Counted from the first letter of the stretch, positions 6,692 to 28,874 are shown. The stretch: 29,122 bases of DNA from Candidatus Auribacterota bacterium (GCA_016929035.1 JAFGJP010000022.1:1-29122), one strand, 5' to 3'. A program made the numbers and translations. The notes: generated by a model not told the origin, from the sequence alone.

Positions 6692-6761
6692 TCCTTAAGC
6701 AGGAGAAACTCTGAAGAGCCTGCGGTTTGGATTGTTAAAACGACAGTTCCAGCAGAAAACC

Positions 6762-7547: not shown

Positions 7548-7577
7548 AAAATAAAAATTTAAAAGTGAAAAATAAAG

Positions 7578-7603
7578 AATAAGGAGCGCTGCGCGCAGAT
7601 AAT
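7578..7603 (+). repeat. 3'-end motif AATAAGGAGCGCTGCGCGCAGATAAT, copy 1 of 3
   Basis: Related copies at 25853-25879 (+) and 26935-26959 (-), each shortly downstream of a stop codon in sense orientation. Confidence 0.75.
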
Positions 7604-7661
7604 AATAAAAAGTAATCCCGTGACGTCCTTAGGCGGATGGAGTAAAGCATGAAAATTCCTT

Positions 7662-7724
7662 GTCCCTCTTGTTTCTTGCCTCTTGATTCTTTTATCCTGT
7701 ATCGTGTATCCTGTATCTTATATC
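7662..7724 (-). repeat. GATACAG-type heptamer array (9 units)
   Basis: Minus strand reads GATATAA GATACAG GATACAC GATACAG GATAAAA GAATCAA GAGGCAA GAAACAA GAGGGAC. Confidence 0.85.
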
Positions 7725-7823
7725 TGTTATTATTTCCTAATTGTTATTTTTAGCTTTTAATTTTTTTCTCCAGTTTGTTTGTCCGCTTAATTATAAGAGC
7801 AAGAAGAGAAAAAGGATTTTAAA

Positions 7824-8831
7824 ATGATCATTCTAGGCATCGAGACGTCATGCGATGAGACGTCCGCCTCTCTGGTCGGAGACGGGCACAGGATTCTTTC
7901 TCTTGTGACGTCAACGCAGATTGATTTTCACAGGATCTACGGCGGCGTTGTCCCGGAAATCGCGAGCCGCCTTCATGCAGAGACGATAAGAGAGGTCACT
8001 CGAAAAGCCCTTGAAGATGCCTCTGCTGATCTGGAAGAGATTGATGCTGTTGCGGCCACAAGCGGGCCCGGTCTTCTGGGTTCTCTTCTCGTGGGCGTGT
8101 CTTTTGCCAATGCTCTGGCTCTTTCCCTGAGGAAGCCCTGCATGGCCATCAACCATCTCGAGGCTCATATCTATTCGGCTTTTATGGAGTTTTCTGAGAT
8201 TGAGCCTCCGGTTGTCGCTCTTCTTGTATCAGGAGGACATACGGCTATCGTGTTCATGGAAGATTTTGGCCGGTACCGGATGATGGGGAGCACTCTTGAC
8301 GATGCAGCAGGAGAGGCTTTTGATAAGATCGCTTTCTTTCTCGGCCTGGGCTATCCTGGAGGGCCTGCCATAGAGAAAGCGGCTTTGAAAGGAAACCGCA
8401 CAGCTTTTGAATTTCCAAGAGCCATGCTCAGGCATAAAAGATTATATGATTTCAGCTTCAGCGGGTTAAAAACATCTGTCATTAATAAGGTCAGGTCTCT
8501 TGCTGAATCTCCGGAGCTTCTGCCTGAAAAAGTCAAGCTCGACGTCGCAGCCAGTTTTCAGGAAGCTGTCTGCGACGCGCTTGTTGCCAAAACGATTGCT
8601 TCTGCGGAAGAAAGCGGTGTTAAAAGAGTCGTCCTCACAGGCGGTGTTGCAGCCAATTTACGCCTGAGGGAAAAGTTAGGAGAAGCGTGTGAAAAAAAAG
8701 AGATCCGTCTTTTTACTCCTTCCATGAAGCTGTGCGGTGATAATGCAGCCATGATCGCCGGCCTGGCCTTTTATAAGCGACACCAGGCCCTGGAATTCAT
8801 CGATGATGTAAGTTCTGTCAAGCCGATCTAA
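7824..8831 (+). CDS. tsaD: tRNA N6-adenosine threonylcarbamoyltransferase TsaD
   Basis: ILGIETSCDET, SGPGLLGSLLVG, NHLEAH, LLVSGGHT, TLDDAAGEAFDK, FSFSGLKT, GGVAAN, CGDNAAMIA. Confidence 0.97.
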   Translation: MIILGIETSCDETSASLVGDGHRILSLVTSTQIDFHRIYGGVVPEIASRLHAETIREVTRKALEDASADLEEIDAVAATSGPGLLGSLLVGVSFANALALSLRKPCMAINHLEAHIYSAFMEFSEIEPPVVALLVSGGHTAIVFMEDFGRYRMMGSTLDDAAGEAFDKIAFFLGLGYPGGPAIEKAALKGNRTAFEFPRAMLRHKRLYDFSFSGLKTSVINKVRSLAESPELLPEKVKLDVAASFQEAVCDALVAKTIASAEESGVKRVVLTGGVAANLRLREKLGEACEKKEIRLFTPSMKLCGDNAAMIAGLAFYKRHQALEFIDDVSSVKPI

Positions 8832-8855
8832 AATATTCTAAGCACCAAAAAATGC

Positions 8856-8900
8856 GATACAAGATTCACGATACAGGATGCAGGATAAAAGAAGCAAGAA
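8856..8900 (+). repeat. GATACAG-type heptamer array
   Basis: GATACAA GATTCAC GATACAG GATGCAG GATAAAA GAAGCAA GAA; inverted relative to 7683-7724. Confidence 0.85.
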
Positions 8901-8901
8901 G

Positions 8902-8933
8902 CCCTTCGACTCACTGCATTCGCTCAGGACAAG
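8902..8933 (+). repeat. REP-like CCCTTCGACT..CGCTCAGGAC motif
   Basis: Single copy in window; resembles an intergenic repeat type recalled from other bacteria, not verified. Confidence 0.35.
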
Positions 8934-8955
8934 CAAAGAAGTAAGATGCAGAAAA

Positions 8956-9054
8956 AATGAATCTCTCCGGGCTAAAGCCTGGAGTCTTTATAAAAGACCC
9001 CGCTTCGTAACATATCGCAAAAATCCACCGTGGAATTCGCGCATCGATTAAAGA
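8956..9054. mobile_element. Non-autonomous hairpin element, IS200/IS605-end-like, copy A
   Basis: Hairpin CTCCGGGC-TAAA-GCCTGGAG; 55/66 identity of 8974-9039 to 12279-12344; no transposase. Confidence 0.55.
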
Positions 9055-9123
9055 TACAGGAATAACCATAAAAATAAAGAAAATAGAAGAGAGAATAGAA
9101 AAAGACAATATACGATCAAGTGT

Positions 9124-9215
9124 ATCAGATCATAAGGATATCAGGTTTTATTTTTTTCTGATGCCCTGGTGCCCTGATATCCTGCCTCCTGGTTTCCTGA
9201 TAATCTGATTTCCTG
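9124..9215. repeat. NNNATCAG octamer array with local inverted copy
   Basis: 9158-9215 CTGATGCC CTGGTGCC CTGATATC CTGCCTC CTGGTTTC CTGATAAT CTGATTTC; GGATATCAGG (9136-9145) is the exact complement of CCTGATATCC (9173-9182). Confidence 0.8.
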
Positions 9216-9226
9216 TTTTTATTTAT

Positions 9227-9706
9227 CTATAACAGCGCATTGATCTTTTCGCGGATATCTTTGAAAACATCCACTCGTTCTATAGACGTCTGGTCTTTGT
9301 TAATAAGAAAGTTTGCGGGCACGCCGACTATCCTGTAAGAACTGGCCGTCTTTGCTTCCCTGTCGATCAGCGTTGTATACATGATTCCTTTGTCGCGAAC
9401 AAGGCTTTTGACCATGTTTTCTCCCTCGGTGATGTTTACGTAGAGCACCTGGAAAGGCTTGTCCTTATATTCTTCATGCAGCTTGTTAAGATAAGGGATT
9501 TCTTGCATGCAAAACGGGCACCGGCTGAATCCAAAAACGAGAAGAACGACCTTTCCTTTCAGCTGGCTGAGAGTCACGTCTTCACCGTTTACGCTTTTCA
9601 GGGTAAAGTCCTTGACGCTGATCGGCTGACCGGCCAAGGAGCAGGAGGACAAAGAAAGCAAAAGAAAAAAGAAGATGATGATTTTAAAACAAGAAAAATT
9701 TTTCAC
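9227..9706 (-). CDS. TlpA/ResA-like thioredoxin-fold disulfide reductase, probable lipoprotein
   Basis: DFTLKSVNGEDVTLSQLKGKVVLLVF, CPFC CxxC motif, VPANFLINK; lipobox-like LSSC; GTG 9706 after GGAGG. Confidence 0.9.
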   Translation of the reverse strand: MKNFSCFKIIIFFFLLLSLSSCSLAGQPISVKDFTLKSVNGEDVTLSQLKGKVVLLVFGFSRCPFCMQEIPYLNKLHEEYKDKPFQVLYVNITEGENMVKSLVRDKGIMYTTLIDREAKTASSYRIVGVPANFLINKDQTSIERVDVFKDIREKINALL

Positions 9707-9758
9707 AAAGCCTCCAAATGTCAAAATATTTTTTAAAGAATTAAAAAACAGAATTTCA

Positions 9759-10569
9759 TTAGAAAAAAGATCGCGCCGCTAAATAAACAAAGTAAATTCC
9801 CATAAAAATAATCACAGACGCCAGCACTTTTTTGACGGCTATCATCCATTTCCCGCTTTTGAGAAGGCTTGTAAAAAGTGATGAAAATGTCCCGGCAAAG
9901 AGGAAGATCATACCGAGACCCATGGCATAGGTGAAGAGAAGAAGCGAGCCATACAGAATGGAAATTTTTTTAGAGGCGACATAAGTCAAAAGAGCGGCAA
10001 GAACCGGCAGTGTGCATGAGCCGACAACCAGTCCTGAAGCCATGCCGATGAGAAAAGCTCCTGCGTATGTTCCTTTGAGCTGAGACGGGATCTTGCCCGC
10101 AAAGCCTTTTTGAAGGAACCGGGGTATGGGGATCAGGAAAATATCCAGCATGGAAAAGCCGAAGAAAATAAAAATAGCGCCAACGAGGATATTGGTGACC
10201 GGATGTGCTGCGATTCGGCCAAAGAATGTGCCGGCTATCGTGCTGAAAGCACCAAGCGCCGTATAAGTCAGGGCAAGTCCCAGCACGTAGCTCAGAGAAA
10301 TAAGGAAGGCCTGGAGGCGTGAGGAGACGTTCTGGCTGCCGATAAAAGCCACAGTAATGGGGAATAACCGGGTAAACGCACGGAGTCAGGCTGACGGCAA
10401 TGCCTCCGAAAAAAGCGAGAACAAAAGCCAAAAAAGAGCCTCTCTCAAGAGCTTCCTGAAAGGTTTGAGGAATATCTACCGATTGAACAAGAAGGGCATA
10501 GGCTATATAAAAAACAGCAAGCCCCGCAAGAACATAAAGAGGAACTTTAAATTTTTTGAAAAAATTCAT
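9759..10569 (-). pseudogene. ccdA: Cytochrome c biogenesis CcdA / DsbD transmembrane protein, interrupted by a +1 frameshift
   Basis: ORF 9970-10569 carries SLTPCVYPVIP; ORF 9759-10352 carries the rest, including GSCTLPVL. Deleting one G of GGGG 10359-10362 gives a continuous 269-aa protein reading PVIPITVAFIG. Confidence 0.85.
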
Positions 10570-10651
10570 ATTACCTTACATTTTTACCTAAATAACATAA
10601 AAAATAAAAAAAATATTTCTAAAAATAAAAAAAGTTTTTTGGTTATTTTTA

Positions 10652-11254
10652 TCAAAGCAGGCGTATAAAGCAAGAATAAATGACGTAAAGCAGGACAAGA
10701 AGGCTGGTAAGCCCGATAGGAACTCTGTATTTCATAAAGAAGGTGTCGAAATTTTTAAAGAAATCCAGCTGTTCATAGATTTTTTCAGTTGAAATCCACT
10801 GGTTGAAAAAACTGGAGACCGCAGGGAATTTTTGAGGAGAAAAAAACATGAGAACGGCGAAGACCACGCTCAAGCTGAGAAAGATGAAAAAAAACCAGGC
10901 TGAACTCTCAACAATAATGACTGTTAGCCATTCAATTCCTTTTCCTGTCTTGATGAATCTGGAAGTATCAAAAAACGCTTTATTTTTAAAAAGAACATAA
11001 AGGCTGAGCGAAGCAACGATAATAATAAGACAAGAAAACATTCTTATGTGGGGAAGGATTTTCTTCTCTGCATCCCGTCGTTCTTCCAGACGTTTTTGAA
11101 GAGCATTCGAAGAGATCGTGATGTTCGAAGCTTTGGCGATCCGCTCAAAAAGATGAGGGCTGAGCAGCAGCAGGAAAACGAGAAACAGTGAAAAGGTCGA
11201 AAAGGAGAGGATCGTGATCTGAAAAAACTGGATGATAAGTCTGTCAAGGCTCAT
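10652..11254 (-). CDS. Hypothetical membrane protein with two-fold internal repeat
   Basis: About four hydrophobic segments; AAGGA upstream of ATG; matching residues at offset 107. Confidence 0.8.
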   Translation of the reverse strand: MSLDRLIIQFFQITILSFSTFSLFLVFLLLLSPHLFERIAKASNITISSNALQKRLEERRDAEKKILPHIRMFSCLIIIVASLSLYVLFKNKAFFDTSRFIKTGKGIEWLTVIIVESSAWFFFIFLSLSVVFAVLMFFSPQKFPAVSSFFNQWISTEKIYEQLDFFKNFDTFFMKYRVPIGLTSLLVLLYVIYSCFIRLL

Positions 11255-11281
11255 GATAATTATATCCTTGTAATTTATATA

Positions 11282-11310
11282 AGTTTACAGAAAAAGCGGG
11301 CCTTTTTCAA
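11282..11310 (-). promoter_or_regulatory. Putative sigma70 promoter of the membrane protein gene and possibly ccdA-tlpA
   Basis: TTGAAA-N17-TAAACT on the minus strand, ending 27 nt before the ATG. Confidence 0.55.
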
Positions 11311-11327
11311 GGAGGAAAGTATGGGTA

Positions 11328-11378
11328 AATCAAAAATCAAATATAAAAATAAAAAGTCAAAGATTAAAAATCAAAAAT
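11328..11378 (+). repeat. AAAAATC-type heptamer tract
   Basis: AATCAAAAATCAAATATAAAAATAAAAAGTCAAAGATTAAAAATCAAAAAT; shares AAAAATCAAATAT with the minus-strand tract at 26958-26987. Confidence 0.65.
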
Positions 11379-11465
11379 ACATGTGCTGTTAAGAAGAAGT
11401 GTTTACAAATAGGTCATTATTATGCGGGTGACATGATGTGTTCTGAAGCAGAGCGTGCCGACACG

Positions 11466-12101
11466 TCAGATAGGGATAACATGAAAGATATCCTTGAGGT
11501 CTTTCAGTACGTAGTCAGGATTTTCCTTCGAAAGAGTTTCTTTTGACTGGTAGCCTGTTAGAACAGCGGCCGTCTTGAGCCCCGCCTTTTTCCCGGCGCG
11601 GATATCATGGGTCATATCCCCGACATAAACCGTTTTATCCGGCTGGAACCCCATGTCCTGCATGAGGTTTTCTATGGCTTCTTCCTTGTTGGGGATATCT
11701 TCATAGATTCTGTCAAAATAGTCGCGATCCGGAAAGAACCGCTTTGTCTCCAGGCTGACAAAGGAGTGAGAGCTGAGGACGACCAGAACTTTTTCCTGCA
11801 TTTTGAGATTTTTAAGAACCTCTTCAACGCCGTCTATGGGAGCAGGCATGGAATTGTTTTCAGTATAGAATTTTTTAAAGATTTCCCCAAGTTCTCTTTC
11901 GTCTGTCCTTCCCAGATACTCCCGGCAAAAATCCATGTAGGGAAGCCGGAACCTTAATCGGAATTCTCCTATGGAAAGAGGCGGCTTTTTGTAATGCGCA
12001 AAGATCTTCAGGTATGTCTGAAAAACGAAGTGAAAGTCATCGCTGATGACTCCTGACCAGTCAAAGATAAAGTTCTGTATTTTGTGGTTGTTGCTTGCCA
12101 T
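11466..12101 (-). CDS. HAD-superfamily hydrolase (phosphoglycolate-phosphatase-like)
   Basis: Start reassigned to ATG 12101 after AGGA; FIFDWSG motif I, VVLSS motif II, PNK motif III, YVGDMTHDIRAGKKAG motif IV. Confidence 0.9.
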   Translation of the reverse strand: MASNNHKIQNFIFDWSGVISDDFHFVFQTYLKIFAHYKKPPLSIGEFRLRFRLPYMDFCREYLGRTDERELGEIFKKFYTENNSMPAPIDGVEEVLKNLKMQEKVLVVLSSHSFVSLETKRFFPDRDYFDRIYEDIPNKEEAIENLMQDMGFQPDKTVYVGDMTHDIRAGKKAGLKTAAVLTGYQSKETLSKENPDYVLKDLKDIFHVIPI

Positions 12102-12120
12102 ATTGCTTTTCCTGATGAAG

Positions 12121-12129
12121 ATTATACCA
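12121..12129 (-). promoter_or_regulatory. Extended -10 promoter element of HAD gene
   Basis: TGGTATAAT on the minus strand, 19 nt upstream of ATG 12101; -35 is weak. Confidence 0.5.
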
Positions 12130-12230
12130 GATAATGGAAAATGGTGATAATATCCTGTACGCATTTTCAAGTCAAAGAAAAGTTTTGTGTTGTTTTTAAA
12201 ATAAACACATGACAAAGCAGGCAGAGCAGG

Positions 12231-12484
12231 AATGAACCTCCCTGGGCTTCCCTCTGAGGTGGATACGCTTAATGCGGAAAAGCCCGGGGTTTCTTTTAAA
12301 AACCCCGCTTCGTAAAATACCGCAAAAATTCACCGTGAAATTCGAAGAATTCCCGGAGGTAAGTCCTCGGAATTTCTGATGAAATTCCAGAGGGTCTACG
12401 ATATTTTTGCGACACTCAGCGGGATAATCGTCTGCGCTTTCATCTCCGGCTTTATAGGCGGGGAATTCGTGCATCGATTAAAAA
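12231..12484. mobile_element. Non-autonomous hairpin element copy B with two nested insertions
   Basis: Collinear with 8956-9054 (15/18, 55/66 and 20/22 blocks), interrupted by 30 nt (12249-12278) and 125 nt (12345-12469). Confidence 0.6.
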
Positions 12485-12526
12485 ACCTATTGCAAAATTT
12501 TTCCTAACAGTTAATAATAAACACAT

Positions 12527-13054
12527 ATGAAGCAAAACAGAAGAAAACTTTTGATCAATTCCAGAACAAAGTCCATCTTTGCTCTTTTTGTTGTTTTTTC
12601 CTTCATCGTGGCTTTTGTTTTTCTCGGCTGGGAAATCATCATACAGTTTGTTTACTTCAACCATTACGAGCTTTATGAATCGTTGTTCGGTTTTTCCAAC
12701 CTGGGGCTGCTTCTTAAGTCTATCCTTCTTGTTTTCTGGGTGGGTTTTACATTTTTTTCCGCTTATTTTTATATGGAAAGCAAATACAGCGGGATCTTTG
12801 CTCGGATGGACAGGCTTTTTACAGATATCAGCCAGGGGCAGGACAAAAGGCTTTTTTTCCGGGAAAGCGATTCTTTTGCCTATATCGCTGAAAGCTTCAA
12901 CCGCATGGTTGCTAATCTGAAAACAGGTGGCGATATTTCACAACAGGATAAAATTCAGGAAGTTGTAAAAAAATTGGAAAACTTACTCCAGCGTGATGAT
13001 GTTCCAAAGCAGGAAATCGAGACGATTCTCAAAACGATTAAAGAATTTTTGTAA
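12527..13054 (+). CDS. Membrane protein with HAMP-like domain and no output domain
   Basis: Two hydrophobic helices followed by FARMDRLFTDISQGQDKRLFFRESDSFAYIAESFNRMVANL and a short helical tail. Confidence 0.75.
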   Translation: MKQNRRKLLINSRTKSIFALFVVFSFIVAFVFLGWEIIIQFVYFNHYELYESLFGFSNLGLLLKSILLVFWVGFTFFSAYFYMESKYSGIFARMDRLFTDISQGQDKRLFFRESDSFAYIAESFNRMVANLKTGGDISQQDKIQEVVKKLENLLQRDDVPKQEIETILKTIKEFL

Positions 13055-13062
13055 ATTTTTTC

Positions 13063-13091
13063 TTTACAGACACTGTTCTTTCTAATACAAT
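13063..13091 (+). promoter_or_regulatory. Putative sigma70 promoter of pyr operon
   Basis: TTTACA-N17-TACAAT immediately upstream of the PyrR-binding loop. Confidence 0.7.
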
Positions 13092-13104
13092 GACGCAGAA
13101 TCAT

Positions 13105-13137
13105 CCTTTTAAACTAGTCCTGCGAGACTGGAAAAGG
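13105..13137 (+). promoter_or_regulatory. PyrR-binding RNA stem-loop (anti-antiterminator)
   Basis: CCTTTTAAACT-AGTCCTGCGAGACT-GGAAAAGG; has the CUUUAA-like and ARUCCNGNGAG-like elements; CCTTTT pairs with AAAAGG. Confidence 0.85.
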
Positions 13138-13169
13138 TGAAGGCAATGAAAAAAAATAATAAAAAATTG

Positions 13170-13204
13170 ACCCGTCCATTAGATTCAGTGGATGGGTTTT
13201 TTTT
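13170..13204 (+). terminator. Intrinsic terminator of pyr attenuator
   Basis: 11-bp stem ACCCGTCCATT/AGTGGATGGGT (two G-U pairs), 6-nt loop, 8-T tract, upstream of pyrR. Confidence 0.85.
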
Positions 13205-13273
13205 GCCCGCCTCCGCGCAACCTTAAAGCATAGCGAAGGCTTATGCGCTTTGGCGAGGTTTTAAAATGAGGGT

Positions 13274-13831
13274 ATGATGAACGAGCGAAGTATCATGACA
13301 GAAGACGAGATCAAACGGGCGATGATGAGGATTGCCCACGAGATTCTCGAAAAAAACGCAGAAAGAGAAAATCTTGCTCTTGTCGGCATCAGGACCAGGG
13401 GTGTTTTTCTTGCCCAGAGACTGCAGGAAAATATCAAAGGTATCGAGGGCATCACGGTCCCTATGGGGATTCTTGATATCACGCTCCACAGGGATGATCT
13501 TGATCAGCTTCCGACCATGCCGATTGTCGGAAAAACCGAGATCAATTTCGATATAGCCGACAAAATCGTTATCATCGTAGACGATGTCCTTTTTTCCGGA
13601 CGGACCGTTCGGGCAGCACTTGATGAAATCATTGATTTTGGACGTCCAAAAAAAATTCAGCTGGCTGTTCTCGTTGACCGCGGGCACAGGGAGCTCCCCA
13701 TCAAGGCGGACTATGTGGGAAAGAATATCCCGACTTCTCTCAGCGAACAGGTTAAAGTCTCTTTGAAAGAACATGATGAAGAGGAAGGAGTTAAAATCCT
13801 ATGCACAAATGGAACCGAAAGCACCTTCTGA
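13274..13831 (+). CDS. pyrR: Bifunctional pyr regulator / uracil phosphoribosyltransferase PyrR
   Basis: [41 protein letters not shown]. True start may be the second ATG at 13277. Confidence 0.97.
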
Positions 13832-14748
13832 GCATTGAAGAACTGTCCAGGGAAGAGATACTGACGGTTCTGCAGACGGCAGAGTCTTTCAAAGATATCT
13901 CTCTGCGGCCGATAAAAAAGTCTCCAGTGCTCCGCGGAAAAACCATTGTCCTTCTCTTTTACGAACCGAGTACAAGGACAAGCAACTCCTTTTCTCTTGC
14001 CGCCAAGCGTCTGAGTGCCGATGTGGTGAACATATCAGTCAATGCGAGCAGCGTGCAGAAAGGCGAGTCCCTGATAGACACAGCGAAAAACATTGAAGCC
14101 CTGAAGATTCACACGATTATTATCCGTCACTCGCGGGCCGGAGCGCCGATGATACTGGCCAGGCACATCGATGCATCGGTTATCAATGCCGGTGACGGAT
14201 ATCATGAGCATCCGACCCAGGCTCTTCTCGATATGTTCACAATCAAGCAGAGGAAGGGATTTTTTGAAGGCCTTAAGGTCACGATCGTAGGCGACATTCT
14301 CCACAGCCGGGTCGCACGGTCGAACATCTGGGGGCTTTCAAAGCTGGGTGCAGAGGTGACTGTCTGCGGCCCTCCGACCATGATACCTGTTGATATTGAA
14401 GCAATGGGAGCAAAGGTCAGTTACAACCTGAAGGAAGCTGTCGCTGATGCGGATGTTGTCAATCTTCTTCGCGTTCAGTTTGAAAGGGAATCCGGCGTGC
14501 TGTTTCCCTCTGTGAGAGAGTACGCGGCGATGTTCAGCATGGACGATGAGATGGAAAAGTATCTGAAAGAAGATGCTCTGATCATGCATCCGGGCCCCAT
14601 CAACAGGGGGGTTGAGATCTCATCGCGCATGGCTGACGGGAAAAGGTCTGTCATTCTCGAACAGGTCACAAACGGGCTGGCGGTAAGAATGGCCGTGCTC
14701 TATCTTATCTCTGGTGAAAAGGAGAAAACCCGGAAGAGTAGCCTATGA
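13801..14748 (+). CDS. pyrB: Aspartate carbamoyltransferase catalytic subunit
   Basis: [50 protein letters not shown]. Confidence 0.97.
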
Positions 14749-20100: not shown

Positions 20101-20420
20101 TTCGCAGTAGCGGCATGGACGTCCAGAAAGTCTGCAAGCTCAAAGAAGGAAGGCCGCATGTTCTTGATTACATCAAGAACCATGACATTCATTTGATCAT
20201 CAATACTCCCCAGGGCAAAGGCCCGAAAGAGGATGAAGAGCTGATCCGCTCGACAGCTGTCCTCAACAGCATTCCCTGCATCACAACGCTCAGCGGCGCC
20301 AGCGCGGCGGTCAACGGCATCGAGTATCTCAATACTCAGGAGCTGACAGTTATCAGCCTTCAGGATTATCATAAAGACAGGATAAAAGATATAAGTAAAA
20401 ACTTAAAAATAGGCTCATGA
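17157..20420 (+). CDS. carB: Carbamoyl-phosphate synthase large subunit
   Basis: GTG start; 1087 aa; [36 protein letters not shown], duplicated ATP-grasp domains, C-terminal MGS domain. Confidence 0.99.
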
Positions 20421-21202: not shown

Positions 21203-21220
21203 GCGAGAATATGCAAAAAA

Positions 21221-21475
21221 TTCAAATATACTGGAAAAATATTTCTTTGCCTGAAAAGGTTTTTCACGCCGTGAAAGCATCATTTTTTTCGGCGCCTGCC
21301 CTGAACCACAAAGGGTTCAGGGTAAACTCCAATACAAGAATCTTTCCTGTCCTGAACCGAGCGTGCTATGGTTCGGGGCTCGGCGCCCGAACTTTGTTCG
21401 GGACCCTCAAAAAATACTATTTTCAGGCTAAACCTTCTCTAATGGCTACAGAAATATTTTTCCAGTATATTTGAA
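21221..21475. mobile_element. 255-bp MITE-like / fold-back element with perfect 26-bp terminal inverted repeats
   Basis: TTCAAATATACTGGAAAAATATTTCT (21221-21246) is the exact reverse complement of 21450-21475; several internal hairpins; no clear target-site duplication. Confidence 0.75.
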
Positions 21476-21518
21476 AGGTTTTATTGATTTTTTTTAATAA
21501 TCACAGAGATAATAGAGA

Positions 21519-22454
21519 ATGATGGATATTGACTTAACTTGTGATTTGAATGGATTAAAGTTAAAGAATCCTGTTTTTACGGCTTCTGGCACATACGGGG
21601 TGGGGGAGGAGTTTAAGGATTTTTATGATGTGAATTTGCTTGGAGGCATTGTCACCAAGACGGTGACCCTTGAAAAAAGAGAAGGGAATCTGCCTCCAAG
21701 GATATGTGAGACAAGGGGAGGGATTATCAACTCCATCGGTCTTCAGAATCCTGGCGTCGAAGCGTTCGTCAAAGAAAACAAGGAGTGGCTTGAAAGCCTG
21801 AAAACAGCTGTTATCGTGAGCGTATCAGGCCGGACGGTGGATGATTATGTCAGGGTGTGCGCACGGCTGAAGGAGCGACTTCGGTTTGGTGGGGTTGAGC
21901 TGAATGTGTCATGCCCCAATGAAAGGAAGGGGGGCGTTTCTTTCGGACAGGACCCGGACGCTGTGGAGGAAATCGTCGCAAGGGTCAAAAAAGAAACGCA
22001 TCTCTTTGTCATTACCAAGCTTTCTCCCTGGACACACCTTGTCCGTGATGTCGCTTGTGCAGCTGAGGCGGCAGGATCAAACGCCCTTTCAGCCACGAAC
22101 ACGATACCGGCCATAGCCGTTGATCTAAAAACCAGGAAAAGCCGTATTGGGAACGTCACAGGAGGGCTGAGCGGGCCGGCGATAAAACCTGTTTCACAAA
22201 AGATTTTCTATGATATTATTAAAGCTGTAGAAATTCCTGTCATCGGAGTCGGCGGAATAGAGACTCCTGAGGATGCCTTGGAATACATTCTTCTCGGAGC
22301 GACGGCTGTTGAGGTAGGAAGCGCCAATATGTACAATCCGATGGCTGCAAGGGATATCCTTCAGGGCATCAGACGTTATTTATTGTCGAACAGCATGCAG
22401 GACCTTTCGTTGCTGAGAGGATGTTTGGATGAAAAACGAGATGGAAGCGAGTGA
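21519..22454 (+). CDS. pyrD: Dihydroorotate dehydrogenase family 1B catalytic subunit
   Basis: TASGT, TKTVT, NSIGLQNPG, ELNVSCPN (catalytic Cys), TKLSP, GGLSGPAIKP; partner pyrK upstream. Confidence 0.97.
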   Translation: MMDIDLTCDLNGLKLKNPVFTASGTYGVGEEFKDFYDVNLLGGIVTKTVTLEKREGNLPPRICETRGGIINSIGLQNPGVEAFVKENKEWLESLKTAVIVSVSGRTVDDYVRVCARLKERLRFGGVELNVSCPNERKGGVSFGQDPDAVEEIVARVKKETHLFVITKLSPWTHLVRDVACAAEAAGSNALSATNTIPAIAVDLKTRKSRIGNVTGGLSGPAIKPVSQKIFYDIIKAVEIPVIGVGGIETPEDALEYILLGATAVEVGSANMYNPMAARDILQGIRRYLLSNSMQDLSLLRGCLDEKRDGSE

Positions 22455-23166
22455 AAAAATAATCATTGCCCTCGATTTCCCGGAAGAAGAGCGGGCTTTG
22501 AACCTGGTCGATATTCTAGGGAGCTTCTGCAGGATCTATAAGGTGGGCAGCGAGCTTTTTGCGTCTGCAGGATCAAAAATCATTGAAAAGCTCCGCAGCA
22601 GGGGAAAAGACGTTTTTCTTGATCTGAAATTTCATGATATTCCCAATACAGTCGGCCGTGTTTCAAGGTTATCGACACAGCTGGGCGTCAGAATATTCAA
22701 CGTGCATGCTTTTGGCGGAAGCCAGATGATGAAAGCAGCCAAAGAAGAGTCCCTTAAGGCGGCGGAAATGGCCGGTCAAGACTCTCCGCTTGTTTTGGCT
22801 GTAACCATTCTGACAAGCCTCACTTCAGACGTTCTCGTTGATGAGCTGAAAATCCTTTCCACGGTTGAGAACCAGACGATCCATTTTGCACGGCTTGCCC
22901 AGGACAGCGGTCTGGATGGTGTTGTGTGTTCGCCGTTCGAGATAGAGGGCGTGAGGGAAGCCTGTGGAGAAAAATTTGTAGTTCTCACGCCGGGCATCAG
23001 GCCAAAGTGGGCAGCGGCAAATGATCAGAAAAGATTTAAAACACCTGTTGAGGCAGTAAAAGAAGGCGCGGATTTTATTGTTGTCGGGCGTCCTGTCACA
23101 CAGAGCGAAAATCCCAGAGAATCCATGGACAAGATTATTCGAGAGATATCCGGGGTTAAGTCATAA
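22429..23166 (+). CDS. pyrF: Orotidine-5'-phosphate decarboxylase
   Basis: IIIALD, YKVG, DLKFHDIPNT, TPGIR, VVGRPVT. Confidence 0.97.
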   Translation: MKNEMEASEKIIIALDFPEEERALNLVDILGSFCRIYKVGSELFASAGSKIIEKLRSRGKDVFLDLKFHDIPNTVGRVSRLSTQLGVRIFNVHAFGGSQMMKAAKEESLKAAEMAGQDSPLVLAVTILTSLTSDVLVDELKILSTVENQTIHFARLAQDSGLDGVVCSPFEIEGVREACGEKFVVLTPGIRPKWAAANDQKRFKTPVEAVKEGADFIVVGRPVTQSENPRESMDKIIREISGVKS

Positions 23167-23187
23167 CCTTGCCTTGAAGAAAATCCG

Positions 23188-24225
23188 ATGCAGAGTGTTC
23201 TAAAAAAAAAATCCTTAGCTGTTATCAGCGCTTTACTTATTCTTTTTGTTTTCCTTGCTTATCTGGTCCATTCTTATTATTTCAGAGCCAGGCGATATGA
23301 GATCAGCGCCTTAAAGCTGGGAACGGTTGTCTCCATTATCATCTACGCCGAAGGGCCGATCGATCTATCGTCCGTAAAAACGCGCTGCATGGAAAAAATA
23401 GAAGAAAGCGAAAAGGTTTTCAGCGTTCACCGGGAAGACTCGGAGATCGCACGGATGAACGCGCTTGCTGCAAAGAGATCCTTTCCGGCATCAGAGATGA
23501 TGCAGGAGGTCATCAGGAGGTCCAGGAAAATGCACCTGAGAACGGGCGGCGCTTTCGATCCAAGTGTTTTTTCACTCCTGAAGCTCTGGCATCTTTCTGA
23601 TTTTGAAGAGGAAGACAAAAAAGGTTTTCCTCATGATAAAGAGATCAGCGCGCTCATGCCTCTTTTGGGAATGGATAAAGTTATCCTGGAAAAAGAAGGT
23701 TCTGTCCGCTTTGCGAATGAAAGCGTTTCTCTGGATTTCGGGGGCATTGCCAAAGGATTGATTATTGACGGCCTTACGGATATGCTTCAGAGAGAGCCTC
23801 ATGTTTTTGCGGGGATTGTGAATATCGGGGGTGACCTGAAAACGTTTATTTTAAAAGAGGATTATCCTTCTTTTCAGATCGGTATACGCGATCCGGAAAA
23901 AAAGGAAGCGCTTTTGGGAGGCGTTGAAGTCAGAAACTCGTCGGTTATGACATCAGGCGGATACGAAAGGTTTCGCGAATATCATAAAAAAAAATATATC
24001 CATATTCTTGACCCAATGACCGGGCGGCCGGTAGAGAACGGTGTTCTGAGCGTTACGGTCATAGGAGGGAATGCGGCTGACTGTGATGCTTTAGCCACGG
24101 CTCTCATGGTCCTTGGTCCGGAAAAGGCAAAGAGTGCGATAAGAGATGAAAAAGTTTTTTTTGTTGTGAAAAGACATGAAAAAACTGATAAAATTTTTTT
24201 AAATGGGTTTGAGCTGAGAGACTAA
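23188..24225 (+). CDS. apbE: FAD:protein FMN transferase (ApbE family), N-terminal membrane anchor
   Basis: LGTVVSI, GAFDPSV, LDFGGIAKG, VNIGGD, TSGGYER, HILDP, SVTV and CDALATA motifs. Confidence 0.93.
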   Translation: MQSVLKKKSLAVISALLILFVFLAYLVHSYYFRARRYEISALKLGTVVSIIIYAEGPIDLSSVKTRCMEKIEESEKVFSVHREDSEIARMNALAAKRSFPASEMMQEVIRRSRKMHLRTGGAFDPSVFSLLKLWHLSDFEEEDKKGFPHDKEISALMPLLGMDKVILEKEGSVRFANESVSLDFGGIAKGLIIDGLTDMLQREPHVFAGIVNIGGDLKTFILKEDYPSFQIGIRDPEKKEALLGGVEVRNSSVMTSGGYERFREYHKKKYIHILDPMTGRPVENGVLSVTVIGGNAADCDALATALMVLGPEKAKSAIRDEKVFFVVKRHEKTDKIFLNGFELRD

Positions 24226-24227
24226 TT

Positions 24228-24995
24228 ATGTTTTTAGAAGAGATAGTCGAGAAAAAAAGAGCGTATCTTGAAGAGAGAAAGAAGGTTCTTCCCCTTTCTT
24301 CGATCGAAACGGTCAGCACGGAATTTTCTGGCGATATTTTTTATCAGAACCTCAAGAAAAGCGGTATCAATATCATCGCTGAGATCAAGAAAGCCTCGCC
24401 ATCAAAAGGGATCTTTTCAGAGGATTTTGATGCTCTTTCTTTGCTGCGCCAGTACGAAAAAGGCGGCGCCAGAGCCATAAGCATTCTCACGGAAAAAGAT
24501 TTTTTTCTCGGCTCTCCCGAGGTTTTTTGCGAGCTGAGAGAAAAGACGACTCTCCCTCTTCTTAGAAAAGATTTTGTGATCGATGAATACCAGATCTATG
24601 AGTCGGCCTATCTCGGCGCCAACGCGATTCTCTTTATTGTCCGCATTCTGGAACCGGAGCAGCTCAGCGACTATATTTCGCTCGCGCGTGAGCTCGACAT
24701 CGCTCCTCTCGTCGAGGTTCATGATGAAGAGGAGCTCGGAACAGCCCTAAGCTCAGGTACAGACATCATAGGAGTCAACAGCAGGGACCTGAAGACGTTT
24801 AAGGTCAACAGGGAAAAGATGGAGAAGCTTCTTTCTCTTATCCCAACAGGATTTCTGAAGATCGCAGAGAGCGGCATTCAGGACAAGGAAGATATGCTTG
24901 AACTCAGGAGAGCCGGAGCAGATGTCTTTCTTGTGGGAGAAACGCTTATCAAAAGCAAAAGTCCTGAAAGACTATTGAAAAGCTGGACGACATGA
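24228..24995 (+). CDS. trpC: Indole-3-glycerol phosphate synthase
   Basis: IIAEIKKASPSKG, ISILTE, PLLRKDF, LVEVH, IGVNSRDL, IAESGI, LVGETL. Confidence 0.97.
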   Translation: MFLEEIVEKKRAYLEERKKVLPLSSIETVSTEFSGDIFYQNLKKSGINIIAEIKKASPSKGIFSEDFDALSLLRQYEKGGARAISILTEKDFFLGSPEVFCELREKTTLPLLRKDFVIDEYQIYESAYLGANAILFIVRILEPEQLSDYISLARELDIAPLVEVHDEEELGTALSSGTDIIGVNSRDLKTFKVNREKMEKLLSLIPTGFLKIAESGIQDKEDMLELRRAGADVFLVGETLIKSKSPERLLKSWTT

Positions 24996-25110
24996 CAGAA
25001 AAGAGAAAAAAGAGAATAGAAATTAGATACAAGATTCATGATGCAGGATAAAAAAGGGGATCAGATTATTAGGATATCAGGGATAAGGATACCAGGACAT
25101 CGGAAATCAG
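24996..25110 (+). repeat. Stacked arrays: AGAAAAG/AGAGAAT heptads, GATACAA heptads (25026-25053), NNNATCAG octamers (25057-25110)
   Basis: GATACAA GATTCAT GATGCAG GATAAAA matches 8856-8890 minus one unit; the octamers match the reverse complement of 9158-9215. Confidence 0.85.
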
Positions 25111-25159
25111 AGAAAAGAGAAAAACTCGATGATTTATTTCGTCCTTCGTTTTTTTGCTT

Positions 25160-25204
25160 TAGCGGACTTAACGGTCTTAACGGACATAACCGACTCAACG
25201 GATA
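25160..25204 (+). repeat. Nonamer array (5 units) directly before trpF ATG
   Basis: TAGCGGACT TAACGGTCT TAACGGACA TAACCGACT CAACGGATA. Confidence 0.85.
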
Positions 25205-25206
25205 AC

Positions 25207-25854
25207 ATGAGCATTAAGGTCAAGATCTGTGGAATAACCAATATCAGTGATGCAGAGAGCATCCTGAAGTACAGACCGGATTTTTTTGGATTCATCATGT
25301 ACCCCAAAAGCCCGAGGTACATTAAGCCGAACCGGGTGAGGGATATCGTGGAACATGTCCACCGGCAGGTGAGAGCTGTCGGCGTTTTTGTCAATGAGGC
25401 CCCTGAGAACGTTCTTCATTACGCAAGGCTCTGTCATTTTGACTTTGTCCAGCTTCATGGCGATGAGACACAGGAAGACATCAGCTTCCTCAAGGTCCAG
25501 GGTCTCCGGGTCATCAAGGCGTTTCGCCTGAAAGATGAGACGGTCATTGAAAGCGCCCGTGACTTTATGTGCCGGTTTCTTCTCTTTGACGCCTTTAGAA
25601 GAGACCAGTACGGCGGAACAGGAGAAACGATCAACCAGGATCTTCTGACCTTTCTTTCAAAAGATGACGTGCTGCAGAAAAGGCGGATTTTCCTTTCCGG
25701 CGGGCTTCATTCAGGAAATGTCCGTGAAGTCGTTTCGCATTTTTATCCGTATGCTGTTGATGCGTCAAGCCAGCTGGAGTCCGCTCCCGGCATCAAGGAT
25801 ATTGCCAAGGTAAAAGCGTTTATCGAGGAAGTCCGCTCGATCCCGGAAGAATAA
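25207..25854 (+). CDS. trpF: Phosphoribosylanthranilate isomerase
   Basis: Start reassigned to ATG 25207 (MSIKVKICGIT); FGFIMYPKSPRYI, VGVFVN, VQLHGDE, LLFDA, GGTG, LSGGL, AVDASSQLE. Confidence 0.96.
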   Translation: MSIKVKICGITNISDAESILKYRPDFFGFIMYPKSPRYIKPNRVRDIVEHVHRQVRAVGVFVNEAPENVLHYARLCHFDFVQLHGDETQEDISFLKVQGLRVIKAFRLKDETVIESARDFMCRFLLFDAFRRDQYGGTGETINQDLLTFLSKDDVLQKRRIFLSGGLHSGNVREVVSHFYPYAVDASSQLESAPGIKDIAKVKAFIEEVRSIPEE

Positions 25855-25942
25855 TAAGGTACGCTGGCGCGCAGATCATTTTAAATTTAGCCACGAAGAG
25901 CACGAAGGGACACGAAGTTATTCGCACTTCGTGCGAATTTTT
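25853..25942 (+). repeat. 3'-end motif copy 2 plus CACGAAG-repeat/hairpin element copy 1
   Basis: AATAAGGTACGCTGGCGCGCAGAT, then TAGCCACGAAGAGCACGAAGGGACACGAAGTTATTCGCACTTCGTGCGAATTTTT (25888-25942). Confidence 0.85.
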
Positions 25943-25961
25943 GTCAGCCACATATCTGTTC

Positions 25962-26801
25962 TCATCCCATCTTTTTCTTTAAAACTTCTATGGACTGTTC
26001 ACTGAGAAGGAAGCGTTTGATCTTTTCTTCAGGAGACTGTTCTTTGTGCGGTCTCAACTTAAGAGATGCTTTCAGGTCGCGGATGATGTCTTCTTTCTGA
26101 ACTGAAAAATCGACGTCATCCATGCTTCTTATGCGGTCAAGAGTTCCATCTAATTTTTTCCTGTAACTCTCAAGTTCATCCTGGGACAAAAAGGGAAGCA
26201 TCTTTTCAATTCTCAGCATAAAACGGTCAAGGATAAAGGGCTTTCTTTTTGCATAAACGCTCTCAGGAAGTGTGCGGACTTTATCCAGCAGATCAGCTAT
26301 GGGCTTGCTGCTTCCAGCCTGGCCTACACGACCGTCCTGCAACTGGGGAATCAGACAGGGTGTAAATCCGTTAACAGCATAGATCTGATGTTCGCCAAGA
26401 TAATTTTTTATATCAAGGGCAAGTATCATGAGCTTTTTTTCTAACCGGTACTTTATGTCATCTATTTTTTCCTTGGACCGGTGGAAATCCTTTGTTGTCC
26501 CTTTGGTTACGACGACACGGCCTTCTTCGACCTCTTCCTCCAGCATGCTGTAAGCTTCGAAAAAATCCTCATAGTACGCTTTTACTTCTTTTTCCGTAGA
26601 CCTTCTTATATTCCTTGCTTCTTGCGCTTTTTCCAGGATAAACTCCAGCTGCTCCTGGCTCAGGCTGATGGCGTTGATAAAATTGGAAATCTGGATGCGC
26701 TCCACGATATTCTGAAGATCCTGGTAAGGACGCTCTTCTGAAAACGTTGTGCAGGGAAGGCTTAAAATGACAAGGCAGACAATAAGAAATACGTTTTTCA
26801 T
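25962..26801 (-). CDS. Hypothetical secreted alpha-helical protein (279 aa)
   Basis: Signal-peptide-like N-terminus MKNVFLIVCLVILSLPCTTFS; charged helical body; AAGGGG upstream. Confidence 0.8.
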   Translation of the reverse strand: MKNVFLIVCLVILSLPCTTFSEERPYQDLQNIVERIQISNFINAISLSQEQLEFILEKAQEARNIRRSTEKEVKAYYEDFFEAYSMLEEEVEEGRVVVTKGTTKDFHRSKEKIDDIKYRLEKKLMILALDIKNYLGEHQIYAVNGFTPCLIPQLQDGRVGQAGSSKPIADLLDKVRTLPESVYAKRKPFILDRFMLRIEKMLPFLSQDELESYRKKLDGTLDRIRSMDDVDFSVQKEDIIRDLKASLKLRPHKEQSPEEKIKRFLLSEQSIEVLKKKMG

Positions 26802-26873
26802 GGGAATCCCCTTTCTTTTTTAATGTCTGACTTTCTTATACGTTTAAGAAGAGAGGATATTTTAGAATTTTTA

Positions 26874-26987
26874 AAAAATTGCACGAAGTGCAATTAACTT
26901 CGTGTCCCTTTGTGTACATTTGGCTAATTATTTGATTATTGTGCGTAGCGCTCCTTATTTTTGATATTTGATTTTTTATTTTTAATT
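26874..26987 (-). repeat. AAAAATC heptads, 3'-end motif copy 3 and CACGAAG-repeat/hairpin element copy 2
   Basis: Minus strand after the asnB stop: AATTAAAAATAAAAAATCAAATATCAAA, AATAAGGAGCGCTACGCACAATAAT, then TAGCCAAATGTACACAAAGGGACACGAAGTTAATTGCACTTCGTGCAATTTTT (26926-26874). Confidence 0.85.
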
Positions 26988-28874
26988 TTATTGAAACTTC
27001 TCCATCCAGTACTGGAACATCAGGACGGCCCACAGCTTTTTCCTGTGGTCGTCTTTGTTATCGAGATGTTCTTTCTTTATGGCTTCGACGTAATCCGGGT
27101 TAAGCAGTCCCTGGCGGGAAATGTCTGAGGAATTCAGATACTTTTCTATTTCCTCTTGAAAAGCACTTCTCAGCCAGCGTGAAAGGGGCATGGCAAACCC
27201 CTGCTTGGGCCTCCCAATGATCGGTTGCGGTATCACCTTTTTGAAAGTTTCTTTAAGGATGTATTTCACGCGGTAGCGCCGGAATTTTTCAAAGTGAGGT
27301 ATCTGGCGGAATGCGTATTCCACAAGGTCGTGGTCCAGGAAAGGAGAGCGGACTTCCAGTGAGTTTGCCATGCTCGCGCGGTCCACTTTAACAAGGACTC
27401 CGTCGCGAAGGTAAAGCCTCGCCAGGTTGTACTGGAGAAGACTCACCTCATCCTCGTCTTTTCTAAGCATTATGTTTTTCTCGATATCCTCAAGAACGAT
27501 ATCCTGGATATTTTGAAGATGAAAGCCTGTCAGCCGGGAAAGTTCATCAAGTGAAAAAGAGCCGAAAAGAGACATTACCTGGGTCAATGGGTTTGGTAAG
27601 GAAAAGGAGTGCTGCAGTTTTTTCCCCATGTAGTTCCAAGAGGAGTAGGATTCGCTTGAATAAAGAAAAGGTAGGACTGCTTTCAGAAAAAAATTGAAAG
27701 ACGGCCTGCCTTTCCGGAAAAAGGAAAGGATTTTCAGGAGATGAAAACCCTGGTAGCCGGCAAAGAGCTCATCGCCTCCGTCTCCCCCGAGGACGACTTT
27801 GACATGCTGCCTCGCTTTTTCCGAAAGAAAATAGGTTGGCACAAGCGAGGGGTCGGCAAAAGGCTCATCAAGATAATCCTTGATCTTTTGAAGCGTCTCT
27901 CTAGCAGCATGTTCGGTCAGGATAAAGTGATGATGCTTTGTTTTGACTTCATCGGACATGAGGCGGGAATAGAATGACTCATCATAGGAATTTTCTTTAT
28001 AACCGATGCTGAAAGAGTGAAGATTTTTTTGGTGGCTGAGACGTTTCATGAGATAGGAGATAATGCTGGAGTCAATGCCTCCGCTTAAGAAAATACCGAC
28101 TGGCACGTCGCTTCGAAGCCTTTTTTCAACAGCTTTTTCAAGGTGAAAGAAAAGACTTTTTTTCCTTTCTTCAAAAGAAAGGGCTGGTTTTTTTTCAAAG
28201 AGAGGAATATCCCAGTACATATTCTCCTTGTATGATCGGCGCTCGATGTCAACAACAAGCGAGCAGCCTGCGGAAAGCTTGAAAAGAGAAGAAAACATCG
28301 TCTCCTTGCCGGGAATATAATCATAGAAGAAATATTTCATCAGGGCCCTGGAGTTCATTGACCCTGCAGAAGCAGGATGCGATCTTACAGCTTTCGGTTC
28401 TGAGCCAAAAACAAAAACGTCCGGATTCACCAGGTAATAGAGCGGCTTTTGCCCCATCCGGTCCCGGCCAAGAAAAAGGATTTTTTTTCTTTTATCGTAA
28501 AGGGCAAAGGCAAACATTCCGTGGATGTGACGTATGGCGTCAAATCCTTTTTCTTCATAAAGATGCACCAGCACTTCTGCATCTGAGCGCGTCTTAAAGA
28601 CGTGGCCCTTTGCCTGGAGCTCGTTCCGGCATTCAGTAAAGTTGTAAAACTCGCCGTTTTGAATAACGATGATCTCGTCGTCTTCGCTGGTGATGGGCTG
28701 ATGCCCGGTTGAGATGTCGATGATGCTGAGCCGCGAATGGGCCAGCCCCACACGCTCGTCCGTGTAGATGCCCGTGTCATCAGGGCCCCTCTGGCGAAGA
28801 GATGAGATCATGGGTTGGAGAAATGAAGGATCAAGCGTATTTTTAAAGTCGATGTATCCGCAAATGCCGCACAT
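26988..28874 (-). CDS. asnB: Asparagine synthase (glutamine-hydrolyzing) family amidotransferase, possibly surface-polysaccharide associated
   Basis: Start reassigned to ATG 28874 (MCGICG, Ntn Cys2); HSRLSIID, QNGEFYN, RDRMGQKPLYY, LSGGIDSS, GDGGDELFAGY, EVRSPFLD. Confidence 0.95.
   Translation of the reverse strand: MCGICGYIDFKNTLDPSFLQPMISSLRQRGPDDTGIYTDERVGLAHSRLSIIDISTGHQPITSEDDEIIVIQNGEFYNFTECRNELQAKGHVFKTRSDAEVLVHLYEEKGFDAIRHIHGMFAFALYDKRKKILFLGRDRMGQKPLYYLVNPDVFVFGSEPKAVRSHPASAGSMNSRALMKYFFYDYIPGKETMFSSLFKLSAGCSLVVDIERRSYKENMYWDIPLFEKKPALSFEERKKSLFFHLEKAVEKRLRSDVPVGIFLSGGIDSSIISYLMKRLSHQKNLHSFSIGYKENSYDESFYSRLMSDEVKTKHHHFILTEHAARETLQKIKDYLDEPFADPSLVPTYFLSEKARQHVKVVLGGDGGDELFAGYQGFHLLKILSFFRKGRPSFNFFLKAVLPFLYSSESYSSWNYMGKKLQHSFSLPNPLTQVMSLFGSFSLDELSRLTGFHLQNIQDIVLEDIEKNIMLRKDEDEVSLLQYNLARLYLRDGVLVKVDRASMANSLEVRSPFLDHDLVEYAFRQIPHFEKFRRYRVKYILKETFKKVIPQPIIGRPKQGFAMPLSRWLRSAFQEEIEKYLNSSDISRQGLLNPDYVEAIKKEHLDNKDDHRKKLWAVLMFQYWMEKFQ

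Follow-up and report, generated by a model that had tools for sequence, protein, structure and literature searches.

The DNA under study is a stretch of 29,122 nucleotides (GCA_016929035.1, JAFGJP010000022.1:1-29122; further called the window), which forms a complete 29-kb contig of a metagenome-assembled genome of Candidatus Auribacterota bacterium (1.97 Mb in 327 contigs, 77% complete, 44.7% G+C; further G000) from a sediment sample, and the features of interest are the arrays of short direct repeats in the spacers between its genes. All of these genes have housekeeping functions, as they code for a lipopolysaccharide kinase, EF-P, PanD, both halves of transketolase, a tail-specific protease, a polysaccharide deacetylase, TsaD, a redoxin, CcdA, and a HAD hydrolase, followed by pyrR-pyrB-pyrC-carA-carB-pyrK-pyrD-pyrF, apbE, trpC, trpF, and asnB. 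Pfam retrieved neither a transposase nor a nuclease domain from any open reading frame (ORF) of the window with a family match, as a previous reading of the sequence alone (further the sequence-only reading) had maintained; four ORFs had no family match. An Rfam scan of the window did not reveal any rRNA, and all repeat copies of the window are located between protein-coding genes, not in a helix of 23S rRNA.

The sequence-only reading had described nine spacers as being built from stacked, recurring short-period modules. Arrays with periods of 7, 8, and 9 nt were found with Tandem Repeats Finder (TRF) where that reading had placed them in six of these spacers (7548-7823, 8832-9226, 11255-11465, 24996-25206, 25855-25961, and 26802-26987), and the nine spacers together (2183 bases) yielded 16 TRF rows, as compared to a mean of 0.92 and a maximum of 5 in 100 dinucleotide shuffles. 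The description did not apply to the other three, which hold a two-copy structured element (12102-12526), lie just behind a PyrR attenuator (13205-13260), or contain a fold-back element (21203-21518). The features that follow the repeat grammar are listed here (arms, cargo, and layers as described below).

7545..7582, + strand: A-rich heptamer array (TAAAAAA, 5.4 copies; TRF), an outer layer directly behind the stop codon of the deacetylase gene (6732-7547).
7581..7603, + strand: AAGGWG mini-hairpin with AAGGAG, a GCGC-loop-GCGC stem, and an AT-rich tail (pattern match).
7667..7725, + strand: pyrimidine-rich heptamers (TCTTGTA / CCTGTAT, 8.4 copies; TRF) in right-arm orientation, the reverse complement of the GATACAG family; complementary to 8856-8899 at 38/44 positions.
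8855..8899, + strand: GATACAG-family heptamers (TRF) in left-arm orientation, behind the tsaD stop codon.
9120..9217, no strand assigned: cargo-less palindromic element, in which ATCAGG-type 8-mers (9124-9147) face their complement (9155-9217) with a T-rich loop between; its RNA fold reaches -26.6 kcal/mol (z-score -2.4) on the + strand and -27.2 kcal/mol (z-score -4.0) on the - strand.
11327..11378, + strand: AAATCAA heptamers (7.6 copies; TRF) of the AAAAATC family, without a partner arm in the spacer.
24997..25123, + strand: purine-rich stack behind the trpC stop codon, made up of AGAAAAA heptamers, a GATACAA-type unit, ATCAGG 8-mers, and AGAGAAA; predicted to be unstructured (open centroid fold, z-score -0.65).
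25159..25202, + strand: TTAACGGAC 9-mer array (4.9 copies; TRF) of a 24-site family, in right-arm orientation, ending 5 nt ahead of the trpF start codon.
25856..25879, + strand: AAGGWG-type mini-hairpin starting 2 nt past the trpF stop codon, matched by a looser pattern alone (A where the strict pattern has G).
25892..25917, + strand: CACGAAG 9-mers (2.7 copies; TRF), a GxxExxY-type arm and inner layer.
25920..25943, + strand: terminator-like inner hairpin in which one CACGAAG unit faces its complement, with a T-run behind it (8-pair stem plus TTTTG); the fold of 25886-25948 reaches -18.5 kcal/mol (z-score -2.8).
25962..26801, - strand: orphan ORF of 279 aa between two CACGAAG half-elements, without Pfam or NCBIfam match.
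26868..26989, - strand: mirror half-element behind the asnB stop codon, complementary to 25892-25943 (score 27 over 42 nt), consisting of AAAAATC heptamers (26989-26957), an AAGGAG mini-hairpin (26956-26935), CACRAAG 9-mers (26918-26897), and a hairpin with T-run (26904-26868).

The modules are not confined to the window. Throughout G000, TRF returned 1451 rows, which peaked sharply at period 7 (368 rows) and included a further 91 rows at period 14, and the internal spacers (210 kb) contained 160 period-7 arrays, compared with 6.5 ± 2.7 in shuffled sequences. Genome-wide, 291 of the period-7 arrays were intergenic versus 77 'coding', non-coding DNA representing just 18% of the genome. Each of the named modules was present in 10 to 59 copies, nearly all of them intergenic, namely triple GATACAG at 21 sites (all intergenic), triple AAAAATC at 27, triple CACGAAG at 24, ATCAGG 8-mers at 59, and AACGGAC 9-mers at 24; the reversed genome gave no matches, except for two of AAAAATC. 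As many as 124 distinct period-7 units were counted. The elements are nearly all intergenic and prefer positions hard against stop codons. Contigs assembled from the source run stop at repeat elements of the window (10594/10626, 12295-12482, 25939, and 26955). Since such repeats break short-read assemblies, copy numbers in the fragmented G000 genome are lower bounds.

Elsewhere in G000, arrays of this kind flank small cargo genes of two families, as the sequence-only reading had stated for similar arrays. TIGR02436 is represented by a single gene, and GxxExxY (TIGR04256) by six or seven genes or fragments. Every cargo gene of this genome has a purine-rich array on its 5' side and a complementary array on its 3' side, with as units ACCACAGAG (three copies plus complement) on contig C306, GACTCAA on C294, CATGAAG on C325, CACGAAA on C251, and ACGCAGAT on C234. 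The TIGR02436 ORF (C294:317-637; 122 bits) lies between the GACTCAA arrays, and no such ORF is present inside the window. Among 79 genomes of the phylum, GxxExxY genes were found in 47 and TIGR02436 genes in 51, and families f5 and f8 possessed neither. A survey of the flanks of 58 cargo loci from about 50 other genomes of the phylum (arm score of at least 15) revealed clear inverted arms at approximately 45 loci, comprising 24 of the 29 GxxExxY and 21 of the 29 TIGR02436 loci.

The period of the arms follows the class of the cargo. Around GxxExxY genes, it was 9 in 16 and 8-10 in 21 of the 24 armed loci, and the arm ends are conserved across the phylum, with a (T)TCACC or AACC start and the arrangement (T)TCACC ... 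GGTGA(A). Around TIGR02436 genes, it was 7 at 19/21 loci. The purine-rich arm came first at 37 phylum loci versus 6, and all 20 inverted array pairs of G000 within 5 kb and without an intervening gene were purine-first too. As the arm period tracks the cargo, the heptamers of the window (GATACAG, AAATCAA, and ATTTTTG) are of the form of four-helix-bundle (TIGR02436) arms, and its 8-10-mers (ATCAGG, AACGGAC, and CACGAAG) of the form of GxxExxY arms. The absence of a mobile gene, as stated by the sequence-only reading, is true of the window only, because the GxxExxY protein is itself a predicted PD-(D/E)XK nuclease; neither cargo family is a known transposase. Sequence searches retrieved no solved structure for GxxExxY and two unannotated solved structures for TIGR02436, with one relative from Xanthomonas campestris (2gsc, E 4e-18). 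The orphan ORF of the window (25962-26801) was considered as a cargo candidate and rejected, given that G024 and G010 alone yielded homologues (27-32% identity), which have no matching arms; it is probably not a dedicated cargo. At another locus of the phylum (L063, G044:C16, approximately 1370-1990), a GxxExxY cassette is accompanied on both sides by a second, nested set of CGCAAAG arms, which clearly exemplifies stacking through repeated insertion or duplication of arms.

In G000, the two kinds of arrays are arranged in layers. Read inward from the gene, a half-element consists of heptamer arrays, a mini-hairpin with the motif AAGGWG, an AT-rich tail, about three copies of an 8-10-mer, and an inner hairpin or cargo gene, the inner hairpin being small and often provided with a T-run; the opposite side of the element is the mirror image. 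Around 69 AAGGWG matches, heptamers were situated on the outer side in 32 cases versus 2, and 8-10-mers on the inner side in 25 versus 2. The mini-hairpin has a 4-bp covarying stem (CGC/GCG versus TGC/GCA), and its strict pattern had 44 occurrences in G000 and 21 in the sister genome G001, with no hits of the reversed-pattern control in either genome, and was absent from 29 other genomes of the order and phylum. Modules following a co-directional stop codon outnumbered those facing a start codon by 27 to 7 (binomial p of approximately 0.001, estimated by normal approximation), and 13 of these 27 were located at -1 to +7 nt of the stop codon, some of them providing the stop codon itself. In the window, the full layer order is found behind asnB; behind trpF, the series begins with the mini-hairpin and continues inward, and the deacetylase gene is followed by the first two layers. 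The layer order is not absolute, since upstream of the sole four-helix-bundle gene of G000 (C294:1-760) four stacked purine-rich modules (GATACAA type, ATCAGG 8-mers, CGCGAAG 9-mers, and GACTCAA heptamers) precede the cognate arm. Furthermore, a recurring module, CCCTTCGACT...GCTCAGGAC, lies next to arrays, in the window at 8897-8935 and also on C243, C277, and C325.

Comparison among relatives revealed how these units come and go. In one genus (g12), a GxxExxY cassette occupies the same site in four species (G027, G044, G011, and G043), and a fifth genome, G042, lacks 535 bp comprising arms and cargo, the flanks being merely 3 nt apart. Arms and cargo are thus gained or lost as one DNA unit. 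Because the empty site lacks both arms along with the cargo, the arrays belong to the element and not to the site, and the window arrays are therefore cargo-less or half elements. The idea of empty or decayed cassette sites, put forward on first reading, was hence right with respect to a repeat-flanked cassette system and its decay, not with respect to vacated sites. Decay is illustrated in G000 by a 41-aa cargo remnant between CATGAAG arms (C76) and by a frameshifted cargo gene (C325), both with intact arms, and in genus g12 by arm pairs around a common 95-nt non-coding core and by arm-plus-leader remnants. In most G000 copies, either the cargo or the partner arm has been lost, or both have. 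Finally, the window is gene-for-gene syntenic with G001, in which long spacers are present as well; they are filled by different elements, pointing to turnover. The modules of the window are not conserved in the orthologous G001 spacers.

With respect to orientation, the sequence-only reading had noticed that purine-rich strands usually follow a stop codon and pyrimidine-rich strands usually precede a start codon. Throughout G000, purine-rich arrays indeed occupied the left half and pyrimidine-rich arrays the right half of spacers in ++ (Fisher p of 3e-6), -- (5e-5), and +- (7e-3) arrangement; this polarity was not seen in divergent spacers. Convergent spacers carried 0.87 arrays per spacer versus 0.31 in divergent ones, and the AACGGAC arrays (24 sites), taken in forward orientation, abutted a convergent stop codon in 17 cases and a start codon in 7. 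The polarity does not bear on transcription, since the order of purine-rich followed by pyrimidine-rich arrays is identical on both strands and fits any gene orientation; its use as a sign of transcription was rejected on this logic. Two metatranscriptome runs of the same study only yielded short pieces, 90-95% alike, on conserved genes such as carB.

Taken together, the arrays in these spacers are probably arms, and more often leftover single arms, of small selfish palindromic cassettes that are scattered over the whole genome and are akin to the intervening sequences (IVSs) of 23S rRNA. A complete cassette consists of a purine-rich array of about three short direct repeats, a leader of approximately 50 nt, a small ORF, and a complementary pyrimidine-rich array. 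Two classes exist, one with heptamer arms and a four-helix-bundle (S23p/TIGR02436) ORF, and one with 8-10-nt arms, starting with (T)TCACC or AACC, and a GxxExxY (PD-(D/E)XK) ORF; in this bacterial family, the AAGGWG mini-hairpin between the two kinds of arrays gives rise to a fixed layer order. Cassettes may have inserted into spacers that were once very short, later ones landing inside earlier ones, and such nested insertion would yield both the stacking and the purine-first, pyrimidine-last rule on either strand. The repeat units probably serve as sites to which the cargo protein of the respective class binds. In Coxiella burnetii, three tandem GACAGAT heptamers precede the S23p ORF of the 23S IVS, and RNase III cuts at the first of them (PMC4990558). 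By analogy, a transcript with both arms may form a long stem cleavable by RNase III, which would make insertion into operons tolerable, as between pyrK and pyrD or between trpC and trpF. It is plausible that operon transcripts are processed where an arm pair survives, as at 9120-9217, because hairpins of this same unit (GACAGAA/GACAGAT) occur in G000 at C10 and C263, an RNase III gene is encoded in this genome, and arm pairs fold well on either strand, besides the analogy with Coxiella.

Several observations weigh against this interpretation. First, no clear target-site duplication was found between filled and empty sites, their flanks differing by 15-20%, and no mobilising enzyme was identified. 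Second, the numbers of arrays and cargo genes match loosely. Indeed, their densities in 11 genomes gave a Spearman coefficient of 0.55 (p of 0.08), G021 contains many cargo genes and few arrays, one TIGR02436 gene faces hundreds of heptamer arrays in G000, and most arrays of this genome have no complementary partner nearby, so that the descent of every array from a cassette is suggested by period and position. Third, arm mismatches in the cargo sense strand comprised 57 G.U versus 63 A.C, hence without a G.U excess by which selection on RNA-level pairing would be visible. Neither these counts nor the G001 spacers lend support to the idea of the sequence-only reading that the modules may have been co-opted for mRNA processing. 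Lastly, co-orientation of cargo genes with their neighbours was tried as a signal and rejected, as 52 versus 24 does not exceed the 75% background of adjacent genes.

The alternative that survives best, although unlikely, is that the host keeps the arrays mainly as RNA structure, i.e., as stems terminating, stabilising, or cutting transcripts, including long-range stems that bracket cistrons such as tsaD. The complementary arrays on both sides of tsaD, perfect 19-nt pairs nested around a block of three genes on C216, and a pair on C129 that matches at 25/25 positions would fit such a role, as would the well-folding local hairpins, the inner hairpins with T-runs, and the cleavage of the Coxiella IVS at a heptamer. 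However, the number of inverted pairs enclosing at least one gene equals that expected under random partner placement (18 versus 18), their order is mixed (8 purine-first, 8 pyrimidine-first, and 2 mixed), G.U pairs are not in excess, and most arrays have no partner. The gene brackets of tsaD, C216, and C129 were consequently rejected as designed structures; they arise automatically because neighbouring spacers have the same layer order.

It is somewhat less probable still that the arrays are host regulatory sites. According to this explanation, they would act as multivalent platforms to which a regulator of the RNA- or DNA-binding type attaches and would make up a post-transcriptional regulon like that proposed for the TAACTGA repeats of Beggiatoaceae, and the cassettes would borrow or share these repeats. 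CsrA is a regulator that binds GGA motifs, and units of the GATACAGGAT type contain GGA motifs of that kind; moreover, no structure is predicted for the purine-rich stacks (25020-25125), and the arrays lie within operons and near gene ends. The Beggiatoaceae repeats provide a precedent (PMC4679880); their TAACTGA sets are located directly upstream of start codons. Yet, the modules are not conserved at the orthologous spacers of the syntenic G001, dozens of different units are involved instead of one, the AACGGAC arrays abut stop codons (17) more than start codons (7), unlike TAACTGA, and this explanation does not account for why the arm period is so strictly tied to the cargo class. A TAACTGA-like placement before start codons was rejected on account of these stop-abutting arrays, and so was a CsrA sponge, as no CsrA was found in G000 (77% complete).

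Least probable is that the AAGGWG module, and perhaps the arrays, are units spread independently of the cargo genes by a domesticated Y1 (IS200-type) transposase, like repetitive extragenic palindromic (REP) sequences and their paired form (REPIN) with REP-associated tyrosine transposases (RAYT). Such an origin would fit the module, a short, lineage-specific, extragenic hairpin that covaries, has a conserved 5' flank, and is often present as inverted pairs 190-350 bp apart, and likewise the Y1_Tnp matches in both genomes (5 in G000 and 8 in G001). However, neither the motif nor arrays flank any of the five G000 genes, although one motif was located 370 nt away from a broken copy, and the position of the module is fixed, between two classes of arrays that follow the cargo genes. 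The G000 matches are located on C274 (7139-7474), C50, C101, C180, and C272, and some of those in G001 occur in unusually long frames of approximately 326 aa.

Apart from the putative cassette remnants, the window contains features outside the array grammar.

8956..9054, + strand (copy A) and 12231-12484 (copy B): two-copy structured element, without TRF array at copy A.
13101..13204, + strand: PyrR-binding attenuator ahead of pyrR (Rfam RF00515, 49.9 bits versus a gathering score of 54), with a terminator-like 12-pair stem at 13169-13198.
21221..21475, no strand assigned: fold-back element of 255 bp between pyrK and pyrD, with terminal inverted repeats of approximately 24-26 nt.

In one contig from the source metagenome, position 12329 is joined to 12395, so that 65 nt of copy B are skipped; this contig may derive from another copy. 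A relative of the fold-back element lies between pyrF and apbE in G001 (L003 560-760, - strand), the element thus being displaced by one or two genes between both genomes. In addition, the HAD hydrolase gene (11466-12101, - strand) is inverted with respect to its neighbours in the otherwise syntenic G001, and both of its flanking spacers bear repeats. The redoxin and ccdA/DsbD_TM genes (9227-10569, - strand) are present in G000 and not at the syntenic place in G001, the ccdA/DsbD_TM gene being split into two overlapping frames (9759-10352 and 9970-10569).

Among the closest known systems, the 23S rRNA IVSs of C. burnetii and Leptospira resemble these cassettes as small selfish inserts with inverted ends, a four-helix-bundle TIGR02436/S23p ORF, and tandem heptamers in the 5' arm, in agreement with the period of 7 in nearly all armed TIGR02436 cassettes of the phylum. 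Unlike the IVSs, which reside in 23S rRNA helices (25 or 45), the elements described here reside in spacers of protein-coding operons, most copies lack an ORF, a second class with 9-nt arms and a GxxExxY ORF exists, and the AAGGWG layer is extra. Excision from the transcript by RNase III belongs to the IVSs and would be putative here.

Miniature transposable elements with inverted repeats (MITEs), REP sequences with bacterial interspersed mosaic elements (BIMEs), and Correia/NEMIS elements are likewise present as many short, non-coding, intergenic copies with inverted ends that are enriched behind genes, as are the 20 local arm pairs of G000 and the arm pairs around the 95-nt core of genus g12. 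These known elements are also co-transcribed with neighbouring genes, which is putative here; Correia elements are cut by RNase III. In contrast, the present ends are not a single conserved inverted repeat; they are arrays of at least three short direct repeats with many alternative units. In addition, the ORF of the coding relatives, tiny and of the four-helix-bundle or PD-(D/E)XK kind, is not a recognised transposase, and a repeat-flanked Y1 transposase gene, as in REP/REPIN systems with RAYT, is missing from G000 (0/5).

Similarly, tandem heptamers that are intergenic and lineage-specific are found among the short tandemly repeated repetitive (STRR) sequences of cyanobacteria, as GGGAATC in Xanthomonas, as GGGGAYT in Nostoc, and as TAACTGA in Beggiatoaceae. 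The Xanthomonas arrays often form convergent inverted pairs (PMC4692102), and TIGR02436 cassettes of the present phylum use closely similar arms (GGGAAT, GGGGACT, and AGGGATC). Those reports differ in that one unit dominates per genome and no link to mobile elements or cargo was found; compared with TAACTGA, the outer arrays abut stop codons, and none of the 124 period-7 units is a single dominant one before start codons. Transposon ends of the inverted repeat-direct repeat (IR-DR) type (Tn7, Tc1-like) also have several short protein-binding units per end in inverted orientation, binding being putative here, and the terminal motif of the GxxExxY class is conserved phylum-wide. They differ by the lack of a transposase gene here and by the purine-first rule across all unit families, which a transposon model does not predict.

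A bolder and tentative proposal, which is rather doubtful as it stands, is that each cargo protein recognises its own arms, the four-helix-bundle protein the heptamers and the GxxExxY nuclease the nonamers, and that both would jointly drive an undescribed movement of cassettes without a classical transposase. The cyanobacterial STRR sequences, the Xanthomonas GGGAATC arrays, and the Coxiella IVS might then be footprints of that one system.

Intergenic heptamer arrays have been on record since 1990, and, to our knowledge, there is no accepted account either of their origin and function or of the origin and mobility of bacterial IVSs; no published link was found between TIGR02436 or GxxExxY genes and flanking arrays. 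What is new is the rule that links the class of the cargo to the period of its arms, the layered grammar, of which a lineage-specific mini-hairpin is part, and the scale of cargo-less remnants in essential operons. In practical terms, these elements break short-read assemblies and inflate the spacers within such operons. Across the whole phylum, the repeat period is tied to the cargo class, with 7 nt for the four-helix-bundle and approximately 9 nt for the GxxExxY proteins. This rule, together with the filled and empty site and the layer order, turns a vague picture of repeat-rich spacers into testable claims on the pairing of proteins with repeats, the cutting of arms by RNase III, and the movement of cargo-less copies.

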